NCBI GenBank assembly: GCA_951406725.2
Contig: OX597818.1
Location: forward strand, 81,778,001-81,842,000
DNA: 64,000 nucleotides
Direction: 5' to 3'
Origin: Octopus vulgaris
Lineage: Eukaryota
Shown here: piece by piece, positions 7,858 to 51,969 of the stretch
How positions within the stretch are numbered: the first letter of the stretch is position 1
Layout: each line of letters opens with the position of its first letter
Translations under genes and position numbers: made by a program
Notes under the pieces: generated by a model
Database searches by the model: none
Told to the model about the DNA's origin: nothing
The model's input: the letters and a program-made list of their open reading frames with translations, nothing else

Positions 7858-9591
<1,734 letters not shown>

Positions 9592-10952: not shown

Positions 10953-10958
<6 letters not shown>

Positions 10959-11360
10959 TAATTAAATTAGAACGAATGGACCCATTAGTATAATTATACC
11001 TAAAATTACCAAGAGGTTAAGGAGATAGACAAAGAACATGCTGTTTCACTCCAGTAAGTTCTATGCTAGAGTGAGACAGCATATTCTTTGTCTATCTCTT
11101 AACCTCTTGGAGATTTTAGGTATAATTAAATTCTATGTCTTTGTGCAGCTGAAGATTGCTCTGCATTTGAAATTGATATAATGATTGAATTATTCAATTA
11201 AAAATGCAGTTGCATGAAACGATCGTACTGCATTACCTCTGGATATCCTTGTTGCGTATTTTGATTTTAATCACATTACTTTGAAATTGTATGGATACTA
11301 CCGTACTAAATTCTGGTGCCTCATCTTAAGTACCATATTCATCTGAATCTAAATTTTTGC
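10953..11360 (+). mobile_element. PLE pLTR-like unit in a TA tract, with 5' fold-back hairpin and HHR
   Basis: Inverted arms of about 65 bp spanning 10991-11128; homologous to 45325-45520; flanked by (TA)n on both sides. Confidence 0.75.
11143..11233 (+). ncRNA. Type I hammerhead ribozyme
   Basis: GTGCAG-CTGAAGA-stem II (CTGCATTT...AAATGCAG)-GAAA-CGATCG (palindromic stem III)-TA-CTGCAT. Confidence 0.8.
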
Positions 11361-16835: not shown

Positions 16836-17144
16836 ATAAAACAGTAAGATAACAAAAGAAAGAAAGAGACCTCAATATTATGTAAATAGAGGAAATTTAT
16901 CTATACAATATGTTACATTACTCGGTAGTCAAGATAAAACTCTGAGTTTCAGATGCCGAAGGGAAATCCACAACACCATCTCTTCGGTTATCTGGCTATT
17001 TGAAAACGTTATGAAAAAATACGGTATTTTTTCATAACGTTTTCAAATAGCCAGATAACCGAAGAGATGGTGTTGTGGATTTCCCCTTCGGCATCTGAAA
17101 CTCAGAGTTTTATTTTGACTACCGAGTAATGTAACATATTGTAT

Positions 17145-23162: not shown

Positions 23163-24452
23163 CGAGGGGCGTTGAATAAGTAATGCCTCTGACCCACTTC
23201 CCATACCATAGCAGTAGAGCAACGAAACTTGGCATGGTTATTATTCTTTTTCTACATAGGAAGTACCAAGTGTTACGCATTTCTCCCATTGGTTGATACA
23301 GCTCTGAAGACCGTTTTTGTAGAAGACCCCAGCTTTGACCTCCAACCACGACGTGACTTCAGAAATCAATGCTGCATCATCTGGGAAACCCTTTCCTTTC
23401 AAAAACAACTTCATGGCTGTGAAGAGGTGAAAATCAGAGGGTGCAAGGTCAAGGGGGATGGGGGAGGAGTTCATAGCCGCACTCCTGCGCTTCTGATCTG
23501 GCGACAAGCGAGTTGTGGACCGGAGCGTTATCCTGCAGGACGAGGATGCATTTGCTGATCTTGCCCCGCTTCTTGATTTTGATAGCTTCTCTTAATTTCC
23601 TCAAAAGTGAAGCATAATAGGCTCCTGTAATTGGGGTACCCTTTGCCAGGAAATCTGTCATCACTACTCCGTCCTGATCCCACAAGACTGTGAGCATGAC
23701 CTTGCCAGCGGAGGGCTGCACCCTTGCCTTCTTTGGAGGAGGTGAGTCACGGTGCTTCCACTGCATTGACTGGGCTTTGGTCTCTGGATCATAGTGATGG
23801 ATCCAGGTTTCATCCTGTGTAATCAGTCTTTTGAAAAATTTTGACTCATCTTCTTGGCACATCTCCAAATTCAGCCTCGAGCACTCGATGCGTTCTTGCT
23901 TCTCGAAAGGTGTGAGCAGCCTGGGAATCCATCTGGCAGACACCTTTTGCATATGCAAATGGTCATGAATGATAGTTTTCACACACCCGGTACTGATCTT
24001 GACCTCATGGGCTACTTGGCGAATAGTTATGCGTCGATCTTCCAAAATGGCAGCCTCAACTTGACGGACAGATGGCTCATCAATGGCAGAAGTGGGGCGA
24101 CCAGATCTGGGAGCTGTTTCCACAGAGTTCCGACCATGTTTGAATTTACGATGCCAGCGTTTTACAAGGTCATATGATGGGGCATCATCACCATAAGTTA
24201 CTTTGATTTCATCAAAAGTCTCCCGTGGTGTTCGTCCTTTCAAATACAAAAACCGGATCACTGCTCGACACTCAACAGGCTCCATTTCACACTTGACTCA
24301 GTTCAAACACCTGTAAATCAGAAACCACAGTTAGTTCAGAGCTGTAATTTTCCACTTAATCTATAGAGATATGAATAAGTCCACATGCAAAATGTCAGCT
24401 GGATCAAACAGCTGCAAATAGGTCAGGGGTATTACTTATTGAACGTCCCTCG
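23163..24452 (-). mobile_element. Near-complete mariner transposon (about 1.29 kb, irritans-like) with TA TSD
   Basis: TIRs CGAGGGGCGTTGAATAAGTAATGCCTCTGACC and GGTCAGGGGTATTACTTATTGAACGTCCCTCG; TA at 23161-62 and 24453-54. Confidence 0.95.
23241..24285 (-). pseudogene. Mariner DD34D transposase with one frameshift
   Basis: HTH N-terminus, WIPRLL, TQDETW, QDNAPVH; frameshift at about 23455 in HPP/(YSP)DLAPSDFHLF joining ORFs 23449..24285 and 23241..23507. Confidence 0.93.
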
Positions 24453-29211: not shown

Positions 29212-29299
29212 GTAGGAGTAGTAGTAACAGAAAAGAGGAATTTCGATTATCACTACGTGGTGAATTGTAATGTATATAAGAAATTAAAAAAGGAAAATA

Positions 29300-30925
29300 C
29301 GCACACTTACAGTCTTTTTACGGCCTTCCTAAAATGCACAAGAACAAGATAATCAATGAGGCCTGCAAACAACCACCAGGCAAATATATAAATATCCAAA
29401 CGCCAGAAGACTTGACTTTAAGACACATTGTAGCTAGGCCAGCCTGTGAAACCCACCGCCTAAGCAATTTTCTAGGCATCCTACTGAAATCCTTGCTGAA
29501 ACACATCAAAAGTTTCATTAGAGATGAATTTGACATGCTAGAATACCTACCAAAAACAATTAATGAAGAGGCAATATTGGTTACCCTCGATGTTATCAAT
29601 CTTTACACCAGCATCCCCCATGACTATGAAATAAAAGCAATTAAATTCTGGTTGGAAAAGCATCCCGAAGTCCTCCGGGAACGCATAAACTAGATCTTTA
29701 TTATTGAATCCTTAAAATTTATACTTCAGAACAATTATTTCCTATTTGATGACACATGCTATCGTCAGATGCGGAAATGTGATGGGGAGGAAAGCAGTTC
29801 CTTTTCTTTTGAACCTAATGATGGGTTATTTTAAATTCACCTTATATGAAGTATCAAATGATTACCCATTTTACCTCTGCATAAGAGGAACTTGGACGAG
29901 ATACCTAGATGACTGCTTTATCATTTGGAAGGAGAATATCGACAAACTTTTGGACTTCAAACCAACACTAAATGATATAAATAGTAACATTCAATTCACA
30001 ATGGAATATAACAAAGAACAACTTCCATTTTTAGACATCATGATAAAAAAAGTTAACAATCAATTCATAACTGACATTTATTATAAACCAACTGATTCAA
30101 AACAATATCTTCTCTTTAACTCATGCCACCCGAAACACATCAAAATAAACATCCCTTTCAATTTAACAAAAAGGATTTGCACAATAGTGTCTGATAGAAC
30201 AACTCGGCACCTTCGTCTTCAAGACATGAAAACAACGCTTATTGAAAGATAATATCCATCCTCACTTATCGACGAGGGAATTAAACGTGCTAAACAATTA
30301 GACACAAATAACTAAGAACAACAAAACATAACACCATACCTCAACTCAAAACATTACTATTTATATCAACACACAACCCCAGAAACAGTGAGGCATTCAA
30401 CACTATTGTGCAAACTCTTCATTTACCAACTAGAGATCCTAGAATGAACGACATCCTGAAAACGCACAAACTTATCAAATGCAAAAAACAAGACAAATCG
30501 CTAAAGAGACTACTAACAAATGCGAAGCTTTACAAAACAACCACGAAATCAGCGGTTGAAAATGTGGCCGCCCAAACTGTGGAACCTGCCCCAACCAGTT
30601 TGAAGGCTCGGATTTCCTTTTCAAACAAGGACAGAGGTTTACAATTAAAACTAGTTTCACTTGTGCCTCTGAGAACCTAATTTATGTAATAACCTGCTCG
30701 GGTTGCGGACACCACTACATTAGACAAACGTGTATGACCTTGAGAAAGAGAACCACTCTACGTAAAGAGCAAATCCGTTTCCCGCAATACGGACAAATTT
30801 CTCTCAGTGAACATATAGAAAAATGTGCAGATAACATCAAGCCAAATTTCAGCCTTCCCTTTCTACCAGTGCAAAGACACGAATAACCAACTTTTATGAA
30901 AAATACCATAATCTAACATGTACAC
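29300..30925 (+). mobile_element. Degenerate Neptune-like Penelope element (RT, Cys linker, GIY-YIG)
   Basis: FYGLPKMHK, LDVINLYTSIPH, WTRYLDDCFIIW, DIYYKPTDSKQYL..SCHP.H, CGRPNCGTCP linker and NLIYVITCSGCGHHYI; several stops and frameshifts. Confidence 0.92.
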
Positions 30926-31038
30926 GAGTTTCATTAACATTGAGCTAGCAGAACCGCAAAATATTGGGGTGCCCTAATACTTTGGCTAAGGCCGTACATA
31001 CATACGTGTGTGTGTGTATATATATATATATATGTATG

Positions 31039-31123: not shown

Positions 31124-31181
31124 AATTATAATTAAGGGTATCTAAGAGATACCACCATAGTAGATACCCTTAATTATAATT
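31124..31181. repeat. Mini fold-back carrying the ACCCTTAATT terminal motif, next to a TA tract
   Basis: AATTATAATTAAGGGTATCTA (31124-31144) and TAGATACCCTTAATTATAATT (31161-31181). Confidence 0.8.
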
Positions 31182-31281
31182 TTGATAATAATTATTACCT
31201 ATGAGGCTTTTATTCCCATGCTAGCCACCTGATATGATCGGTATTTTAAATAATGATCTTATCCTTATATATATAAATTTA

Positions 31282-31352
<71 letters not shown>

Positions 31353-34280: not shown

Positions 34281-35258
34281 TCATTTTTCATTTCATTTCA
34301 TCTAGTTTCATCTGACAGGAAGAGGTCCAGCTTTATTTTGAAGACATCTGCATCCACCCTATGCAGGTCTCTCAAGTCCTTCGGGAGGATATTGAAGAGC
34401 TGTGGACCTCTGAAGCCTGGGCTATTGCAGTATCTTGTCCTACATCTTGATGGCAAATTTGGAGTCCTTGGCACTATGCAGTGGCACCGAGTTCTAGTAT
34501 TTGTGTAACTCTCGATGCCAAAGTTTGGGACAAGTCCTTCCAGGATCTTCCTCATGTATATTATGGCATATCTTTCTCGCCTACGCTCTAAGGAATAGAG
34601 TCTTAATCTCTTGAGTCTTTCCCAATAACTTATATGCTGCATAGAAGCTATCTTCTGCGTGTAACATCGTTGGATTGCCTCAAGTTCTGAGATTAATTTG
34701 ACATTGGTTGGTGACCATAGCTGAGAGCAATAGTCAAGGTGGCTTAGGACAAGTGTCCTCCAGAGGACCATCATGGTTTCCTGGTCTCTTGTTCTAAAAG
34801 CTCTAAGAATCTATCCGGTCAGCCGCCTAAATTTAATTGCCAATTTAGCATCATGCACATGAAACTTTGCATTATTACTCATGTAAATACCCAGGTCTCG
34901 TACTGATTGTGCCTCTGGGATTGCAATTCCTCCAGGTCCAGTGTATTTCTTGGGTATTTCATTTAGTTTTGCATGCTGATAGCACAAACCTTGAAACTTT
35001 TCAGCATCGAACTGCATGATATTCTTTTCAGCCCACTTGTATTTTCGTCCAGCCCACATTGCAGGTGCATAGTGTCTTCAGGGTTCTGCATTACATGTGA
35101 AACTTTTGTATTATCTGCATAACTTATGATCGTGGCTCTGTGTGGCTGAGGGCATGTCTGAGAAGGTCATTATGAACAGCAGTGGTCCGAAAAGAGTGCC
35201 TTGCGGAACACCGCTCACTATTTGCGTCTCATTGGAGGTGGCTCCATTGGCTATTACC
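34280..35258 (-). mobile_element. CR1-group LINE RT 3' fragment
   Basis: SGVPQGTLFGPLLFI, MQFDAEKF, VRDLGIY, LVLSHLDYCSQLWSP and SYWERLKRLRLYSLERRRERY. Confidence 0.88.
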
Positions 35259-45099: not shown

Positions 45100-45519
45100 G
45101 AGAAAGTTAGTCTTATATCTGTTCCTGGGATATTAGGGATATCACTTCATCGTAGATTATGTGAGATGGTTAAATGGAGGGACATATTAGAGTTCAATAT
45201 AAGGAGTTATTTTCGAAAAGGAACGAAAGAAGGCGTATGTAGGGATGTAAGAGAATGAATGTTGAAATAAAAATAAAAAAATATATAAAGAGGTTATAGT
45301 TGAGTTAAAACTGTGATGTTGTTGATAGAGCATGTTCTTTGTCTATCTACTTATCCCCTTTGTGGTTTTGGATAATAAGAAAACTATACAAATGAATCCT
45401 TCAAATTGAACTAAATTCTATATTTTATGCAGCTGAAGATTGCTCTACATTTCAAATTGATGGAATCGCATGAAAAGATCGTACTGCATTACCTGGATAT
45501 CCTTGTTGCTTATTTTGAT

Positions 45520-45520
<1 letters not shown>
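45100..45520 (+). mobile_element. Naiad-like PLE 3' end plus pLTR with HHR
   Basis: RLCEM.KW..ILEF...KRNE..GVCR remnant (C.LC..EK...LN.R.E...C.H type); HHR at 45427-45489 ATGCAG-CTGAAGA..GAAA-AGATCG-TA-CTGCAT, homologous to 11143-11233. Confidence 0.65.
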
Positions 45521-45551
<31 letters not shown>

Positions 45552-45789
45552 TAAGGGTAGAAATTGATATTTATCAATTAAGACCAGTGGTCTAGCATAT
45601 TAAAAAAGAATCCGAAGATTAAAATATTTATATATACCAATTAAGGACTGAACACGAAAAGTGGACAGTCAACATGCTAGATATAGACGTCAAATCGTCA
45701 TTCTCCACAAAAGATTATGTTCTCAGATCAAACTCAACACAAAACCATAGCAATAAACAAGTGAAAAATATACGAAATAAAATAATTAC

Positions 45790-45854
45790 CCATGTACTAA
45801 CTTAGTTTCAGCTGTTATTTTCCGCAAGGAAAACTGCAGCCATCATCAGCATGG
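45790..45854 (-). ncRNA. Type I HHR, array A copy 1
   Basis: CCATG-CTGATGA-TGGCTG..TTTTCC-TTGC-GGAAAA..CAGCT-GAAA-CTAAGTTAG-TA-CATGG. Confidence 0.88.
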
Positions 45855-46320
45855 TCCGTTATAAATGTAATTTGCTGGACTAAATGCAAACACGATACCG
45901 AAATATCGCGCGCATGGAGTTCAGCCTATTACATTTGAATATATCTTTCAAATGCCTTTACTTTGGCGCGTTGAGACCCGAGAAAACTAGCCTGCAGCTA
46001 ATAATTAGCAGCAGTTAATTTATCGGTTAGAGAACATTTATTTATATAAAATTAATTAAGGGTAGAAATTGATATTTATCATTAAGGGTAGAAATTGATA
46101 TTTATCAATTAAGACCAGTGGTCTAGCATATTAAAAAAGAATCCTAAGATTAAAATATTTATATATACCAATTAAGGACTGAACACGAAAAGTGGACAGT
46201 CAACATGCTAGATATAGACGTCAAATCGTCATTCTCCACAAAAGATTATGTTCTCAGATCAAACTCAACACAAAACCATAGCAATAAACAAGTGAAAAAT
46301 ATACGAAATAAAATAATTAC

Positions 46321-46385
46321 CCATGTACTAACTTAGTTTCAGCTGTTATTTTCCGCAAGGAAAACTGCAGCCATCATCAGCATGG
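46321..46385 (-). ncRNA. Type I HHR, array A copy 2
   Basis: Identical to copy 1. Confidence 0.88.
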
Positions 46386-46993
46386 TCCGTTATAAATGTA
46401 ATTTGCTGGACTAAATGCAAACACGATACCGAAATATCGCGTGCATGGAGTTCAGCCTATTACATTTGAATATATCTTTCAAATGCCTTTACTTTGGCGC
46501 GTTGAGACCCGAGAAAACTAGCCTGCAGCTAATAATTAGCAGCAGTTAATTTATCGGTTAGAGAACATTTATTTATATAAAATTAATTAAGGGTAGAAAT
46601 TGATATTTATCAATTAAGACCATATTAAGTCTATATCTAGCATGTTGACTGTCCACTTTTCGTGTTCAGTCCTTAATTGGTATATATAAATATTTTAATC
46701 TTCGGATTCTTTTTTAATATGCTAGACCACTGGTCTTAATTGATAAATATCAATTTCTACCCTTAATGATAAATATCAATTTCTACCCTTAATTAATTTT
46801 ATATAAATAAATGTTCTCTAACCGATAAATTAACTGCTGCTAATTATTAGCTGCAGGCTAGTTTTCTCGGGTCTCAACGCGCCAAAGTAAAGGCATTTGA
46901 AAGATATATTCAAATGTAATAGGCTGAACTCCATGCACGCGATATTTCGGTATCGTGTTTGCATTTAGTCCAGCAAATTACATTTATAACGGA

Positions 46994-47058
46994 CCATGCT
47001 GATGATGGCTGCAGTTTTCCTTGCGGAAAATAACAGCTGAAACTAAGTTAGTACATGG
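46994..47058 (+). ncRNA. Type I HHR, array A inverted arm
   Basis: CTGATGA at 46999-47005, GAAA at 47039-47042, predicted cleavage after GTA at 47053. Confidence 0.88.
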
Positions 47059-47228
47059 GTAATTATTTTATTTCGTATATTTTTCACTTGTTTATTGCTA
47101 TGGTTTTGTGTTGAGTTTGATCTGAGAACATAATCTTTTGTGGAGAATGACGATTTGACGTCTATATCTAGCATGTTGACTGTCCACTTTTCGTGTTCAG
47201 TCCTTAATTGGTATATATATATATATAT

Positions 47229-47500
47229 AAATTAGTAAATAAATGGCACAACTAAGTACCGATATTTACTGGAAATAGCGAACGTAAAAATACGACGCTA
47301 ATGTGTAGCTTCACCGCGTATGTATTAGCAAAAATGCGTGTGTGCAACAAATTAGAGAAAAAAAACCGTCTTACCTCCAGGGAGAACATCTGAAAGATAA
47401 AACACCCGCAAAATGATAATGTGGTACCTGCAGGTTTCAGGTTTTACAAGATATGTCTCTCACCCATATTTTGTTTTACCTTCATCAGCCAAACATATGA
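47229..47500 (-). mobile_element. Third HHR-bearing unit (single, 5'-truncated) between arrays A and B
   Basis: TA-flanked, with its 3' end at the left TA tract; terminal hairpin GGTAC..GTGCC resembles GGTGC..GTACC at 11326-11345. Confidence 0.65.
47421..47492 (-). ncRNA. Type I HHR
   Basis: TGG-CTGATGA-AGGT...ACCT-GAAA-CCTGCAGG (palindrome)-TA-CCA. Confidence 0.8.
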
Positions 47501-47807
47501 TATATATTTGTATGTATATATATAATTAATTAATAAGGGTGAGAGAATTAGATACTAATTTAATAGTATATTTATTCCACACCAAGTGGCCTAGTGCTAC
47601 GAGAAACCTGGATTATTATAATATTTTATAACATATTACAATATTTTCACAAAATAAATATAAGAGAGTGTTCACTATATTGATCACTCTAGCACCAGTT
47701 AATCCAAGAGGTTTCAACCACGAAAAATACATGTTTCCCATGAAAGCCGGTACGACTGTTAGCTCACACGGACAGGGCAAATAAAAAATAACAAAAATAC
47801 AGATTAT

Positions 47808-47885
47808 CTTGGGACAATTGTTTCGCTATTAATGAATTAAATGTAATATTACTTACAGCAATCCATTTGTAGCTCTTCAGCCAAG
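47808..47885 (-). ncRNA. Type I HHR, array B (further minus-strand copies at 48343-48420 and 48878-48955)
   Basis: CTTGG-CTGAAGA-GCTA...TAGC-GAAA-CAATTG-TC-CCAAG; canonical core with a GUC cleavage triplet. Confidence 0.92.
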
Positions 47886-49297
47886 GCTATCTTGATGAAA
47901 TCCACTCAATCACACGCCAGATTTTACCATAACGATAATTACGCGTGCGGTTCAATTGATTACATCGGACGTTATAATTCAAATGCCCCAACCAACAGCG
48001 CGCCAAACTCTCACGGAAAACAAAATACAGCATTTAGAAATAAATGCAGCATAATTATAATTAATTAATAAGGGTGAGAGAATTAGATACTAATTTAATA
48101 GTATATTTATTCCACACCAAGTGGCCTAGTGCTACGAGAAACCTGGATTATTATAATATTTTATAACATATTACAATATTTTCACAAAATAAATATAAGA
48201 GAGTGTTCACTATATTGATCACTCTAGCACCAGTTAATCCAAGAGGTTTCAACCACGAAAAATACATGTTTCCCATGAAAGCCGGTACGACTGTTAGCTC
48301 ACACGGACAGGGCAAATAAAAAATAACAAAAATACAGATTATCTTGGGACAATTGTTTCGCTATTAATGAATTAAATGTAATATTACTTACAGCAATCCA
48401 TTTGTAGCTCTTCAGCCAAGGCTATCTTGATGAAATCCACTCAATCACACGCCAGATTTTACCATAACGATAATTACGCGTGCGGTTCAATTGATTACAT
48501 CGGACGTTATAATTCAAATGCCCCAACCAACAGCGCGCCAAACTCTCACGGAAAACAAAATACAGCATTTAGAAATAAATGCAGCATAATTATAATTAAT
48601 TAATAAGGGTGAGAGAATTAGATACTAATTTAATAGTATATTTATTCCACACCAAGTGGCCTAGTGCTACGAGAAACCTGGATTATTATAATATTTTATA
48701 ACATATTACAATATTTTCACAAAATAAATATAAGAGAGTGTTCACTATATTGATCACTCTAGCACCAGTTAATCCAAGAGGTTTCAACCACGAAAAATAC
48801 ATGTTTCCCATGAAAGCCGGTACGACTGTTAGCTCACACGGACAGGGCAAATAAAAAATAACAAAAATACAGATTATCTTGGGACAATTGTTTCGCTATT
48901 AATGAATTAAATGTAATATTACTTACAGCAATCCATTTGTAGCTCTTCAGCCAAGGCTATCTTGATGAAATCCACTCAATCACACGCCAGATTTTACCAT
49001 AACGATAATTACGCGTGCGGTTCAATTGATTACATCGGACGTTATAATTCAAATGCCCCAACCAACAGCGCGCCAAACTCTCACGGAAAACAAAATTATT
49101 ATTAATTATAATTATTAATTAATTATAATTATGCTGCATTTATTTCTAAATGCTGTATTTTGTTTTCCGTGAGAGTTTGGCGCGCTGTTGGTTGGGGCAT
49201 TTGAATTATAACGTCCGATGTAATCAATTGAACCGCACGCGTAATTATCGTTATGGTAAAATCTGGCGTGTGATTGAGTGGATTTCATCAAGATAGC

Positions 49298-49375
49298 CTT
49301 GGCTGAAGAGCTACAAATGGATTGCTGTAAGTAATATTACATTTAATTCATTAATAGCGAAACAATTGTCCCAAG
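49298..49375 (+). ncRNA. Type I HHR, array B inverted arm (further copies at 49833-49910 and 50368-50445)
   Basis: CTGAAGA at 49303-49309, GAAA at 49359-49362, palindromic CAATTG, predicted cleavage after GTC at 49370. Confidence 0.92.
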
Positions 49376-50605
49376 ATAATCTGTATTTTTGTTATTTTTT
49401 ATTTGCCCTGTCCGTGTGAGCTAACAGTCGTACCGGCTTTCATGGGAAACATGTATTTTTCGTGGTTGAAACCTCTTGGATTAACTGGTGCTAGAGTGAT
49501 CAATATAGTGAACACTCTCTTATATTTATTTTGTGAAAATATTGTAATATGTTATAAAATATTATAATAATCCAGGTTTCTCGTAGCACTAGGCCACTTG
49601 GTGTGGAATAAATATACTATTAAATTAGTATCTAATTCTCTCACCCTTATTAATTAATTATAATTATGCTGCATTTATTTCTAAATGCTGTATTTTGTTT
49701 TCCGTGAGAGTTTGGCGCGCTGTTGGTTGGGGCATTTGAATTATAACGTCCGATGTAATCAATTGAACCGCACGCGTAATTATCGTTATGGTAAAATCTG
49801 GCGTGTGATTGAGTGGATTTCATCAAGATAGCCTTGGCTGAAGAGCTACAAATGGATTGCTGTAAGTAATATTACATTTAATTCATTAATAGCGAAACAA
49901 TTGTCCCAAGATAATCTGTATTTTTGTTATTTTTTATTTGCCCTGTCCGTGTGAGCTAACAGTCGTACCGGCTTTCATGGGAAACATGTATTTTTCGTGG
50001 TTGAAACCTCTTGGATTAACTGGTGCTAGAGTGATCAATATAGTGAACACTCTCTTATATTTATTTTGTGAAAATATTGTAATATGTTATAAAATATTAT
50101 AATAATCCAGGTTTCTCGTAGCACTAGGCCACTTGGTGTGGAATAAATATACTATTAAATTAGTATCTAATTCTCTCACCCTTATTAATTAATTATAATT
50201 ATGCTGCATTTATTTCTAAATGCTGTATTTTGTTTTCCGTGAGAGTTTGGCGCGCTGTTGGTTGGGGCATTTGAATTATAACGTCCGATGTAATCAATTG
50301 AACCGCACGCGTAATTATCGTTATGGTAAAATCTGGCGTGTGATTGAGTGGATTTCATCAAGATAGCCTTGGCTGAAGAGCTACAAATGGATTGCTGTAA
50401 GTAATATTACATTTAATTCATTAATAGCGAAACAATTGTCCCAAGATAATCTGTATTTTTGTTATTTTTTATTTGCCCTGTCCGTGTGAGCTAACAGTCG
50501 TACCGGCTTTCATGGGAAACATGTATTTTTCGTGGTTGAAACCTCTTGGATTAACTGGTGCTAGAGTGATCAATATAGTGAACACTCTCTTATATTTATT
50601 TTTAT

Positions 50606-51170
<565 letters not shown>

Positions 51171-51324
51171 ATTCGCTATTATCATCTCTCGGATCACTGC
51201 TCTTTTTCTTCTTTGGTGCACATTGCTAGTGGCGCGGCCATACTTACATTGTGAAGCCAGAAAGAAAAATGTTGCGATCAGGCTTAACCTTCTATCACGT
51301 GACAACAATAGTACCAACTATAAG

Positions 51325-51402
<78 letters not shown>

Positions 51403-51431
51403 CATATATATGTATGTATGTATATATACAT

Positions 51432-51519
<88 letters not shown>

Positions 51520-51667
51520 GCTATTATCTCTCGGATCACTGCTCTTTTTCTTCTTTGGTGCACATTGCTAGTGGCGCGGCCATACTTACATTGTGAAGCC
51601 AGAAAGAAAAATGTTGCGATCAGGCTTAACCTTCTATCACGTGACAACAATAGTACCAACTATAAGC
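51171..51667 (-). repeat. Two near-identical copies (about 150 bp) of a diverged mariner 5' segment, inverted relative to 50820-50960
   Basis: 51171-51325 matches 51516-51667 apart from a 3-bp indel; each is followed by (CA)n(TA)n. Confidence 0.8.
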
Positions 51668-51683
51668 ACACACACACACACAC

Positions 51684-51743
<60 letters not shown>

Positions 51744-51969
51744 GCGCGCTCATACATACATACACACACACAAGACACAAAAATATAAGTAATCAGCAAT
51801 AATCCTTGCTCCGTAATATCAAATAAAGATGTAATCGTCTTCATCTCCTGGAGCGGACGCCAGTACTCGATGACAGTATCTTTGCGGATGTCATAAATAA
51901 GGGATTTGTTTGACCACATTTCTTTTCCCACAAACTGAATAACTCGGCACAGTCATTCATATTTTACTT

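Follow-up and report, generated by a model that had tools for sequence, protein, structure and literature searches.

The question raised by a 64,000-nucleotide (nt) stretch of Octopus vulgaris DNA (contig OX597818.1 of assembly GCA_951406725.2, positions 81,778,001 to 81,842,000 of the forward strand; hereafter the window) is how its two neighbouring tandem arrays, A and B, came to be inserted, and what a structured region shared by their units contributes. Judged by sequence, A, B and a third family, C, are protein-free hammerhead tandem repeats, or non-LTR retrozymes (LTR, long terminal repeat), of one dispersed superfamily. The ends of these insertions fall at two sites internal to the tandem or circular RNA, one per arm. 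The two arms of an insertion share one haplotype, and a stem of the shared region, P1, covaries across families. Our favoured explanation, to which we give a probability of roughly 70%, is that two fixed sites of this covarying fold, on a single RNA, are where a Penelope-like reverse transcriptase (RT)-endonuclease, a predicted dimer, primes the two strands of a cut (TA)n target.

Insertion ends and their template

Each array consists of two head-to-head arms set in (TA)n, and the arms are built of tandem units of 505 or 531 nt (A) and 535 nt (B), with one hammerhead core per unit. Searches of the 2.8-Gb genome (227 contigs, in which microsatellites are very abundant) with A and B as queries returned 1483 and 745 candidates, respectively. 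Forty candidates were scored for each family; the scored copies were mostly 98-100% identical and lay on many contigs. From these and from the first matches of a motif search, 37 loci of A, counting the window, and 57 of B were mapped, a sample biased toward young copies in which the motif-found B loci include site 1 by design, although they need not end there.

The outer ends fell on two sites in 63 of 63 cases for A (30 at site 1, 33 at site 2) and 87 of 93 for B (45 and 42), the two end windows spanning 11% and 9% of the unit. Site 1 lies after ACCCT and site 2 after GTCCT (A) or CTCTCT (B), within the loop of P1; 90-130 nt separates them. An initial annotation of the window had proposed that insertion ends would be enriched at a terminal ACCCTTA motif, and they are indeed concentrated there, but its single 3' terminus has to be given up, since about half of the ends use the second site in the stem loop; in the window these include the right-hand termini of array A (47224) and array B (50602). 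Nor does the element meet (TA)n exactly at ACCCTTA, as had been thought: the junctions lie mostly 6-16 nt past the CCCT and the corresponding motif of site 2, with A/T ambiguity and a scatter of several bases in A/T runs. (TA)n was present within 30 nt of the outer end in 60 of 63 (A) and 93 of 93 (B) cases.

Two-arm loci carried one end of each kind in 26 of 26 cases for A and 32 of 36 for B (binomial p 1.5e-8 and 2.3e-10), or 58 of 62 overall. In the four exceptional B loci one end is at neither site, and no locus combined two ends at site 1 or two at site 2. Either site can be on the left, site 1 being there in 14 of 26 A loci and 19 of 32 B loci. Extension at one end only, with an inverted 5'-truncated copy, is a mark of Penelope-like mobilisation, and it is this arrangement that the 58 loci display.

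The outer ends are about 160 and 250-290 nt downstream of the predicted ribozyme cut. Inner ends within 15 nt of the cut numbered 3 of 67 and 4 of 106, with 4.0 and 5.9 expected; in the absence of enrichment the cut was rejected as their origin, and the earlier view that the signal is distinct from the ribozyme cut is upheld. Inner ends were distributed all round the unit with no region avoided, and an apparent cluster in B at unit position 491 was dismissed, as it consisted mostly of subfamily divergence or fold-back junctions. A Helitron-type end (CTAG) was likewise rejected because the ends lie far from CTAG and the elements are two-armed.

Comparison of the arms with each other indicated a common template. 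Over 14,731 sites at 34 B loci, 15 differences were found between arms where 257 would be expected from a random other arm, and 27 rare variants were common to both arms against 10 in one arm. For A, which is less informative, 18 differences were seen against 42 expected at 23 loci.

In the window, the left arm of array A (45538 to 46622, minus strand) holds ~2.1 units and its outer end is site 1, joined after ACCCT to (TA)n; the right arm (46629 to 47224, plus strand) holds ~1.1 units and ends at site 2, joined to (TA)n after GTCCT in the P1 loop. Array B is arranged in the same way, with ~2.9 units on the left (47521 to 49096, minus strand) ending at site 1 and ~2.8 on the right (49112 to 50602, plus strand) ending at site 2, both joined to (TA)n. 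Hammerhead cores and stems were recognisable by eye in consecutive units of both arrays. In A, a type I hammerhead read by eye from the sequence (46993 to 47058, plus strand) has the core CTGATGA...GAAAC, a stem I of CCATG/CATGG and a predicted cut GTA^ at 47053/47054; that of B, also read from the sequence (49298 to 49375, plus strand), has CTGAAGA...GAAAC, CTTGG/CCAAG and a predicted cut GTC^ at 49370/49371. No open reading frame (ORF) of at least 120 amino acids lies inside the A and B arrays, and among the 150 of 295 Rfam matches listed for the window, none reached the gathering level of a family. Elsewhere in the genome, one arm has ~ten head-to-tail units (locus L135). Site 1 of array A is duplicated over 26 nt within inner units of the left and the right arm alike (46054-46113 and 46735-46793), and the terminal unit lacks the duplication.

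A fold common to the families

The shared region was located in both arrays on the plus strand. In A, the long-range stem P1 (46637-46648 with 46714-46725, the whole at 46637 to 46725) encloses hairpin Pb (46647-46671) and site 2 (46667-46680). It is followed at 46726 to 46791 by an ACCACT box, hairpin P2 (46732-46761) and the ACCCTTA of site 1 (46759-46765, repeated at 46785-46791 by the 26-nt duplication); a GTGG box at 47136 to 47145 is predicted to pair (P0) with the CCAC box of its own unit, and is conserved without covariation. In B, the region at 49459 to 49649 holds the GTGG box (49459-49467), P1 (49485-49493 with 49584-49592), Pb (49494-49517), site 2 (49513-49531), a GCCACTT box, P2 (49600-49645) and the ACCCTTA of site 1 (49643-49649). 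With unit positions numbered from the predicted ribozyme cut, P1 begins at 115 in A and B alike; the CCAC box lies at ~200 (A) and ~219 (B), and ACCCTTA at 237 and 273.

The two strands of each stem had been read correctly in the initial annotation, as had the order CTAG(A/G)CCACT(T)GGT then ACCCTTA in both arrays. The long stems with preserved pairing also form in predicted folds of 150 nt (z of -3.21 for A and -3.41 for B, with none of 200 shuffles equally stable). Its description of A and B as otherwise dissimilar is correct as far as BLAST goes, the best match between them having a non-significant E of 0.19, but the units are colinear and intermediate families bridge them.

Genome searches showed how widespread the region is. 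The pattern CTAGRCCACTGG-N15-45-WCCCT had 5,586 matches (control, 9) and a B-type pattern 2,316 (control, 0). From 713 motif instances 63 clusters were formed, many of them truncated or at junctions, and 32 had upstream anchors; these gave 25 non-redundant representatives, one of them mis-anchored, and 24 were aligned after a near-duplicate was dropped. The search pattern itself dictated part of the invariance among alignment columns, and invariant columns were given no weight. The common order was GTGG box, hairpin Pa, P1 5' strand, Pb, site 2, P1 3' strand, RCCAC box, P2 and site 1, and circular folding of A and B yielded that common junction too.

Unprompted, RNAalifold reported P1 only, with four compensatory columns among the 24 family representatives. 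In the named structure 97.9% of P1 cells were paired and four of its eight pairs had changed on both sides; the double-change cells and the covariation score exceeded those of all 500 shuffles. An arm-swap test of P1 gave 103 of 125 paired against a mean of 85, a count equalled in 0 of 5000 trials. On a tree built without the stem, parsimony placed joint changes in all four variable P1 columns, with 5' changes, 3' changes and pair changes of 5/3/6, 7/5/8, 5/5/7 and 3/3/3. The proposal that this region is a cis-signal for the RT therefore stands in so far as a covarying fold is common to the families and the ends are concentrated in it, and falls where it assumed a single 3' terminus; RT recognition itself is inferred from the ends.

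A mini-hairpin at 31124-31181 had been taken as capped by the same terminal motif. It belongs to family C (1206 genome candidates), and its ACCCTTA is the inner site of that family. A short arm of ~35 nt (31124 to 31158, minus strand) ends at site 2 (GATACCCTTAATTATAATT) in (TA)n. The opposite arm (31161 to 31285, right boundary approximate, plus strand) runs through site 2, the P1 3' strand CCCATGCTAG (31215-31224), CCACCT and P2 (31231-31263) to site 1, ATCCTTA (31261-31271), and then (TA)n; the insertion extends past the mini-hairpin to CTAGCCACCTGAT and an outer ATCCTTA site of its own. With a ~35-nt arm ending at site 2 and a ~125-nt arm ending at site 1, the window copy of family C obeys the one-of-each rule. 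The perfect inverted repeat of the mini-hairpin is 21 nt, and family C copies read CTAGCATGGTGGTATC...AGATACCCTTAATTATAATT...CCCATGCTAG-CCAC(C/T)TGAT...GATCTTATCCTTA.

Autonomous elements, transcripts and neighbouring repeats

An RT-motif pattern matched the genome 2,334 times (control, 1), and seven autonomous families of Penelope-like elements (PLEs), PLE-1 and F1 to F6, were inspected, drawn partly from the first 100 of the 2334 matches. Several have open RT-endonuclease frames of 753-847 amino acids, among them an intact frame of 784 amino acids in F1. In a domain scan of eight proteins RVT_1 was found in four and GIY-YIG in two; a protein homology search returned 693 relatives, none usefully named. 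A CX2-5CxxC linker before a C-terminal GIY-YIG, by which Neptune/Nematis-type PLEs are recognised (PMC8557442), was present in 6 of 6 families. All autonomous families examined end in (TA)n, with a tail of ~35-50 nt, and their two-arm copies combine one long and one short end: this was so at 6 of 7 loci of PLE-1 (in the seventh an arm breaks off earlier), 9 of 9 of F1 (six of them chosen with a query covering the long end), 2 of 2 of F2 and 1 of 1 of F6. Intact elements with RT and GIY-YIG (open frames of 753-784 amino acids), the same target and the same end rule, as Penelope-like mobilisation calls for, are present in the same genome.

F1 is the best candidate partner. Its long end reads TTT(T/C)CACCCTTATACA followed by (TA)n, shares CACCCTTAT, and agrees for 9-13 nt with the equally placed sequence of B and related families. 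The initial annotation had looked to an intact PLE with the same terminus for the autonomous partner; F1 does end in CACCCTTAT, but P0, P1 and P2 were found on no autonomous family examined. The ribozyme core of F1 is of the U3/A8 type. PLE-1, F2, F3, F4, F5 and F6 were rejected as direct parents, there being no CTAG-CCAC-TGGT at their ends. The Penelope-like remnant of the window (~29280-30950) was rejected as well, since it is broken and the motif is not attached to its ORF; the motif was absent beside the ORF both after this remnant and in 29 relatives with 1.5 kb flanks. The remnant is a decayed RT-GIY-YIG copy, 63% identical to young PLE-1 over the searched segment.

Canonical Penelope-like elements are described as having one ORF. 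The intact families here have two, with an upstream frame of ~370-560 amino acids that recurs across copies (L393:1213-4841, L269, L276, L213), had no Pfam match in the three scanned, and overlaps the RT frame by ~60-90 nt in F1, F3 and F5, possibly for a programmed frameshift. Both ends of PLE-1 and F1 are enclosed by a GCAT...ATGC stem whose closure is at the ORF1 start codon (L213:176-300, L393:4780-4850); this stem resembles the CTAGCAT...ATGCTAG core of P1. At one locus (L271:5132-5600, minus strand; C1 ~13177000) a two-arm retrozyme directly abuts a truncated F4 element at the latter's 5' end; template switching would explain this, and so would an insertion accompanied by a deletion. Elsewhere (L266, L268, L211, L277) different Penelope-type families are stacked in one (TA)n tract, which suggests insertion hot spots.

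Splice donors lie in the ribozymes of both arrays, GTAAGT in a stem II arm in B (49327) and GTTAGT in A (47047). Three assembled contigs, from runs guessed to be RNA, splice from ribozyme donors to acceptors confirmed in the genome: B-led contigs leave at GTAAGT and continue in sequence with a genomic AG acceptor, and one A contig leaves at GTTAGT likewise. This shows spliced transcripts on the ribozyme strand, level and circularity lying outside this result. At the splice loci (L407:1501, L261, L262, L426) donors in ribozymes join exons lying outside. A B-led contig, of depth 2131 in run X3 (not used as expression evidence), leads to a single-copy exon starting MKLLLILLVLLPLALS, which looks like a secreted peptide and has no B copy within 80 kb upstream in the assembly; upstream of L261, by ~2-3 kb and in the same orientation, there is a B-subfamily array.

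Other repeats were noted in the window. An older hammerhead family (10955-11360 and 45340-45520; 2134 candidates) has a different end structure; in its two-arm copies a short end again appears to be paired with a long one, and a copy sits in the TA tract of array A. A long near-perfect inverted repeat at 16944-17103 is possibly a fold-back insertion, and Mariner-like transposase remnants and several LINE-type RT fragments were found at 23449-24297, 50750-51750, 752-1216, 7990-9217 and 34298-34810.

Proposed priming on one RNA and its relation to known systems

The observations on which priming of both strands at two fixed sites is based are the two sites themselves, their use one of each per insertion, a haplotype common to both arms, flanking (TA)n, the covariation of P1, splicing on the ribozyme strand, and intact PLE ORFs whose elements follow the same two-end rule. 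In the mechanism we propose, tandem copies would yield a multimeric RNA, to be converted into monomers and circles by ribozyme cutting. Protein binding would fall to the fold (P0, Pa, P1, Pb, CCAC box and P2), which would also present two similar modules, each a hairpin followed by C(C/T)(C/T)TTA; each 3' end of the target would anneal by A/T microhomology ~10 nt 3' of one such module. Synthesis of both complementary DNAs (cDNAs) would proceed through as much as several units, stop at random, and leave the two to be joined where they stopped. On this view the intervening 90-130 nt may be the retrozyme form of the Penelope 'tail'. A more detailed version, which we advance tentatively and rate at somewhat below even odds, is a programmed twin priming in which one asymmetric complex on a single RNA places two RTs at different fixed sites; the superfamily's own multi-helix RNA, unlike the ends of host elements, would present both sites on a circle that both RTs copy for several laps with strand displacement.

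Several results weigh against this account. Rfam gave no hammerhead match on A or B at E up to 10. The number of P1 pairs with double changes does not exceed all shuffles (35 of 500 reached it), P0 has no compensatory change and P2 only in 2 of 5 columns, and a covariation test on independent pairs was powerless, having only 2 and 1 pairs on well-supported branches. The missing fold of the autonomous families belongs here too, as does the different layout of F1 and PLE-1, where both ends lie inside the stem closing at the ORF1 start. Rare variants in A were more often in one arm only (18) than in both (8), and later gene conversion or assembly could contribute to the identity of the arms.

The A sites are in addition the most TA-like stretches of the unit, so that microhomology alone could place the ends. 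If the PLE protein primed both strands and A/T microhomology to (TA)n alone set the positions, the fold would serve circle stability, the promoter or ribozyme control; the scatter of junctions inside A/T runs would be expected, as would autonomous ends that have little in common beyond pyrimidines then TA. Microhomology by itself does not, however, predict sites lying one per arm at 58 of 58 resolved loci, and in B an all-A/T stretch at unit positions 182-201 received only 2 of 93 ends against 45 at site 1; most motif copies in other families also have (TA)n within ~20 nt of CCCT. We regard this explanation as unlikely. Slightly less likely, in our judgement, is a single priming followed by fold-back or self-priming, in which the first cDNA or an antisense RNA would serve as template for the second arm and nuclease resolution would account for the second site. 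Fold-back has been proposed for rotifer Penelope elements (PMC3846280), and the tail has been ascribed to endonuclease resolution (PMC8557442); it accounts for the shared haplotype, and arm lengths permit it at 40 of 50 simple loci. It is excluded by length at the other 10 (6 of 23 for A and 4 of 27 for B), some of them narrowly, no relation is apparent between the two inner break points, most of which are non-palindromic, and the feasible loci require site 1 first in 29 cases and site 2 first in 11.

It is also conceivable, and to our minds improbable, that the repeats are terminal fragments (pseudo-LTRs, pLTRs) of an undiscovered autonomous PLE and not self-standing retrozymes. Complete head-to-tail units of 505-535 nt, ~ten of them in the L135 arm with no coding piece, fit this poorly, as do inner ends all round the unit. 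When two PLE proteins were compared by tblastn with 260 locus records of these and related repeat families, seven matched and only L308 joins an arm to an ORF. In its favour are the two-end rule and target common to the autonomous elements, the pLTR-only two-arm insertions that F1 also produces, and the derivation of retrozymes from pLTRs in bioRxiv 10.64898/2026.07.22.740005.

The repeats resemble the non-LTR retrozymes of animals in being dispersed, protein-free tandem repeats of low G+C with one type I hammerhead per unit in genomes with PLEs (PMC7229834; bioRxiv 10.64898/2026.07.22.740005), although the units here, at 505-535 nt, are longer than the circles of 170-400 nt in PMC7229834. Neither insertion ends nor head-to-head arms are described in the available sections of these two sources, and the same holds for a pair of fixed ends and for conserved structure beyond the ribozyme. 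PLEs with a C-terminal GIY-YIG share head-to-head inversion, extension at one end, a (TA)n target and hammerheads near their ends (PMC8557442, PMC3846280). Their published tails are 30-40 nt, as against ~90-130 nt in the non-coding elements and ~35-50 nt in the autonomous ones here, and the one-end tail is there said to occur 'often' or 'optionally', whereas here it was counted and is a strict rule. A U3-A8 core variant was reported, and circular templates proposed, in PMC4209133; the words 'ribozyme' and 'retrozyme' do not occur in the accessible text of PMC13282606. In vitro, Poseidon of Anolis carolinensis, a predicted dimer, cuts and extends both target strands from two internal RT starts (PMC11167929). 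As here, the two starts lie in a stem-loop region and delimit the tail, and ribozyme cleavage is not needed. The Poseidon start region is AC-rich, coding and non-homologous to the target, whereas the retrozymes have an AU-rich, non-coding one with microhomology to (TA)n. In the Poseidon study the start site did not differ between strands, and the main text of PMC11167929 reports no test of whether a single event uses both sites or one RNA.

In LINE-1 twin priming a single RNA is primed by both target ends, which produces an inverted arrangement with a variable second site and non-overlapping arms. The inverted arrangement is alike here, but neither site varies, and the arms run over the same unit repeatedly. 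A literature search by titles and the starts of abstracts, with subscription papers largely outside it, found no two-site rule and no such fold in retrozymes. On our best reading, the known Penelope tail and two-start mechanism extends to this superfamily of retrozymes, in which a covarying RNA element is present and the one-of-each rule is strict.

Arguments on what mobilises animal retrozymes have so far drawn on co-occurrence and pLTR similarity. The insertion scars described here tie retrozymes to the Penelope mechanism and give it a sharp rule of one RNA with two fixed starts, one per strand. In vitro work on the origin of the inverted ends and one-sided tail of PLEs has been called for (PMC8557442), and a non-coding element of ~170-200 nt with natural compensatory variants, together with several intact candidate enzymes in the same genome, makes the model directly testable.

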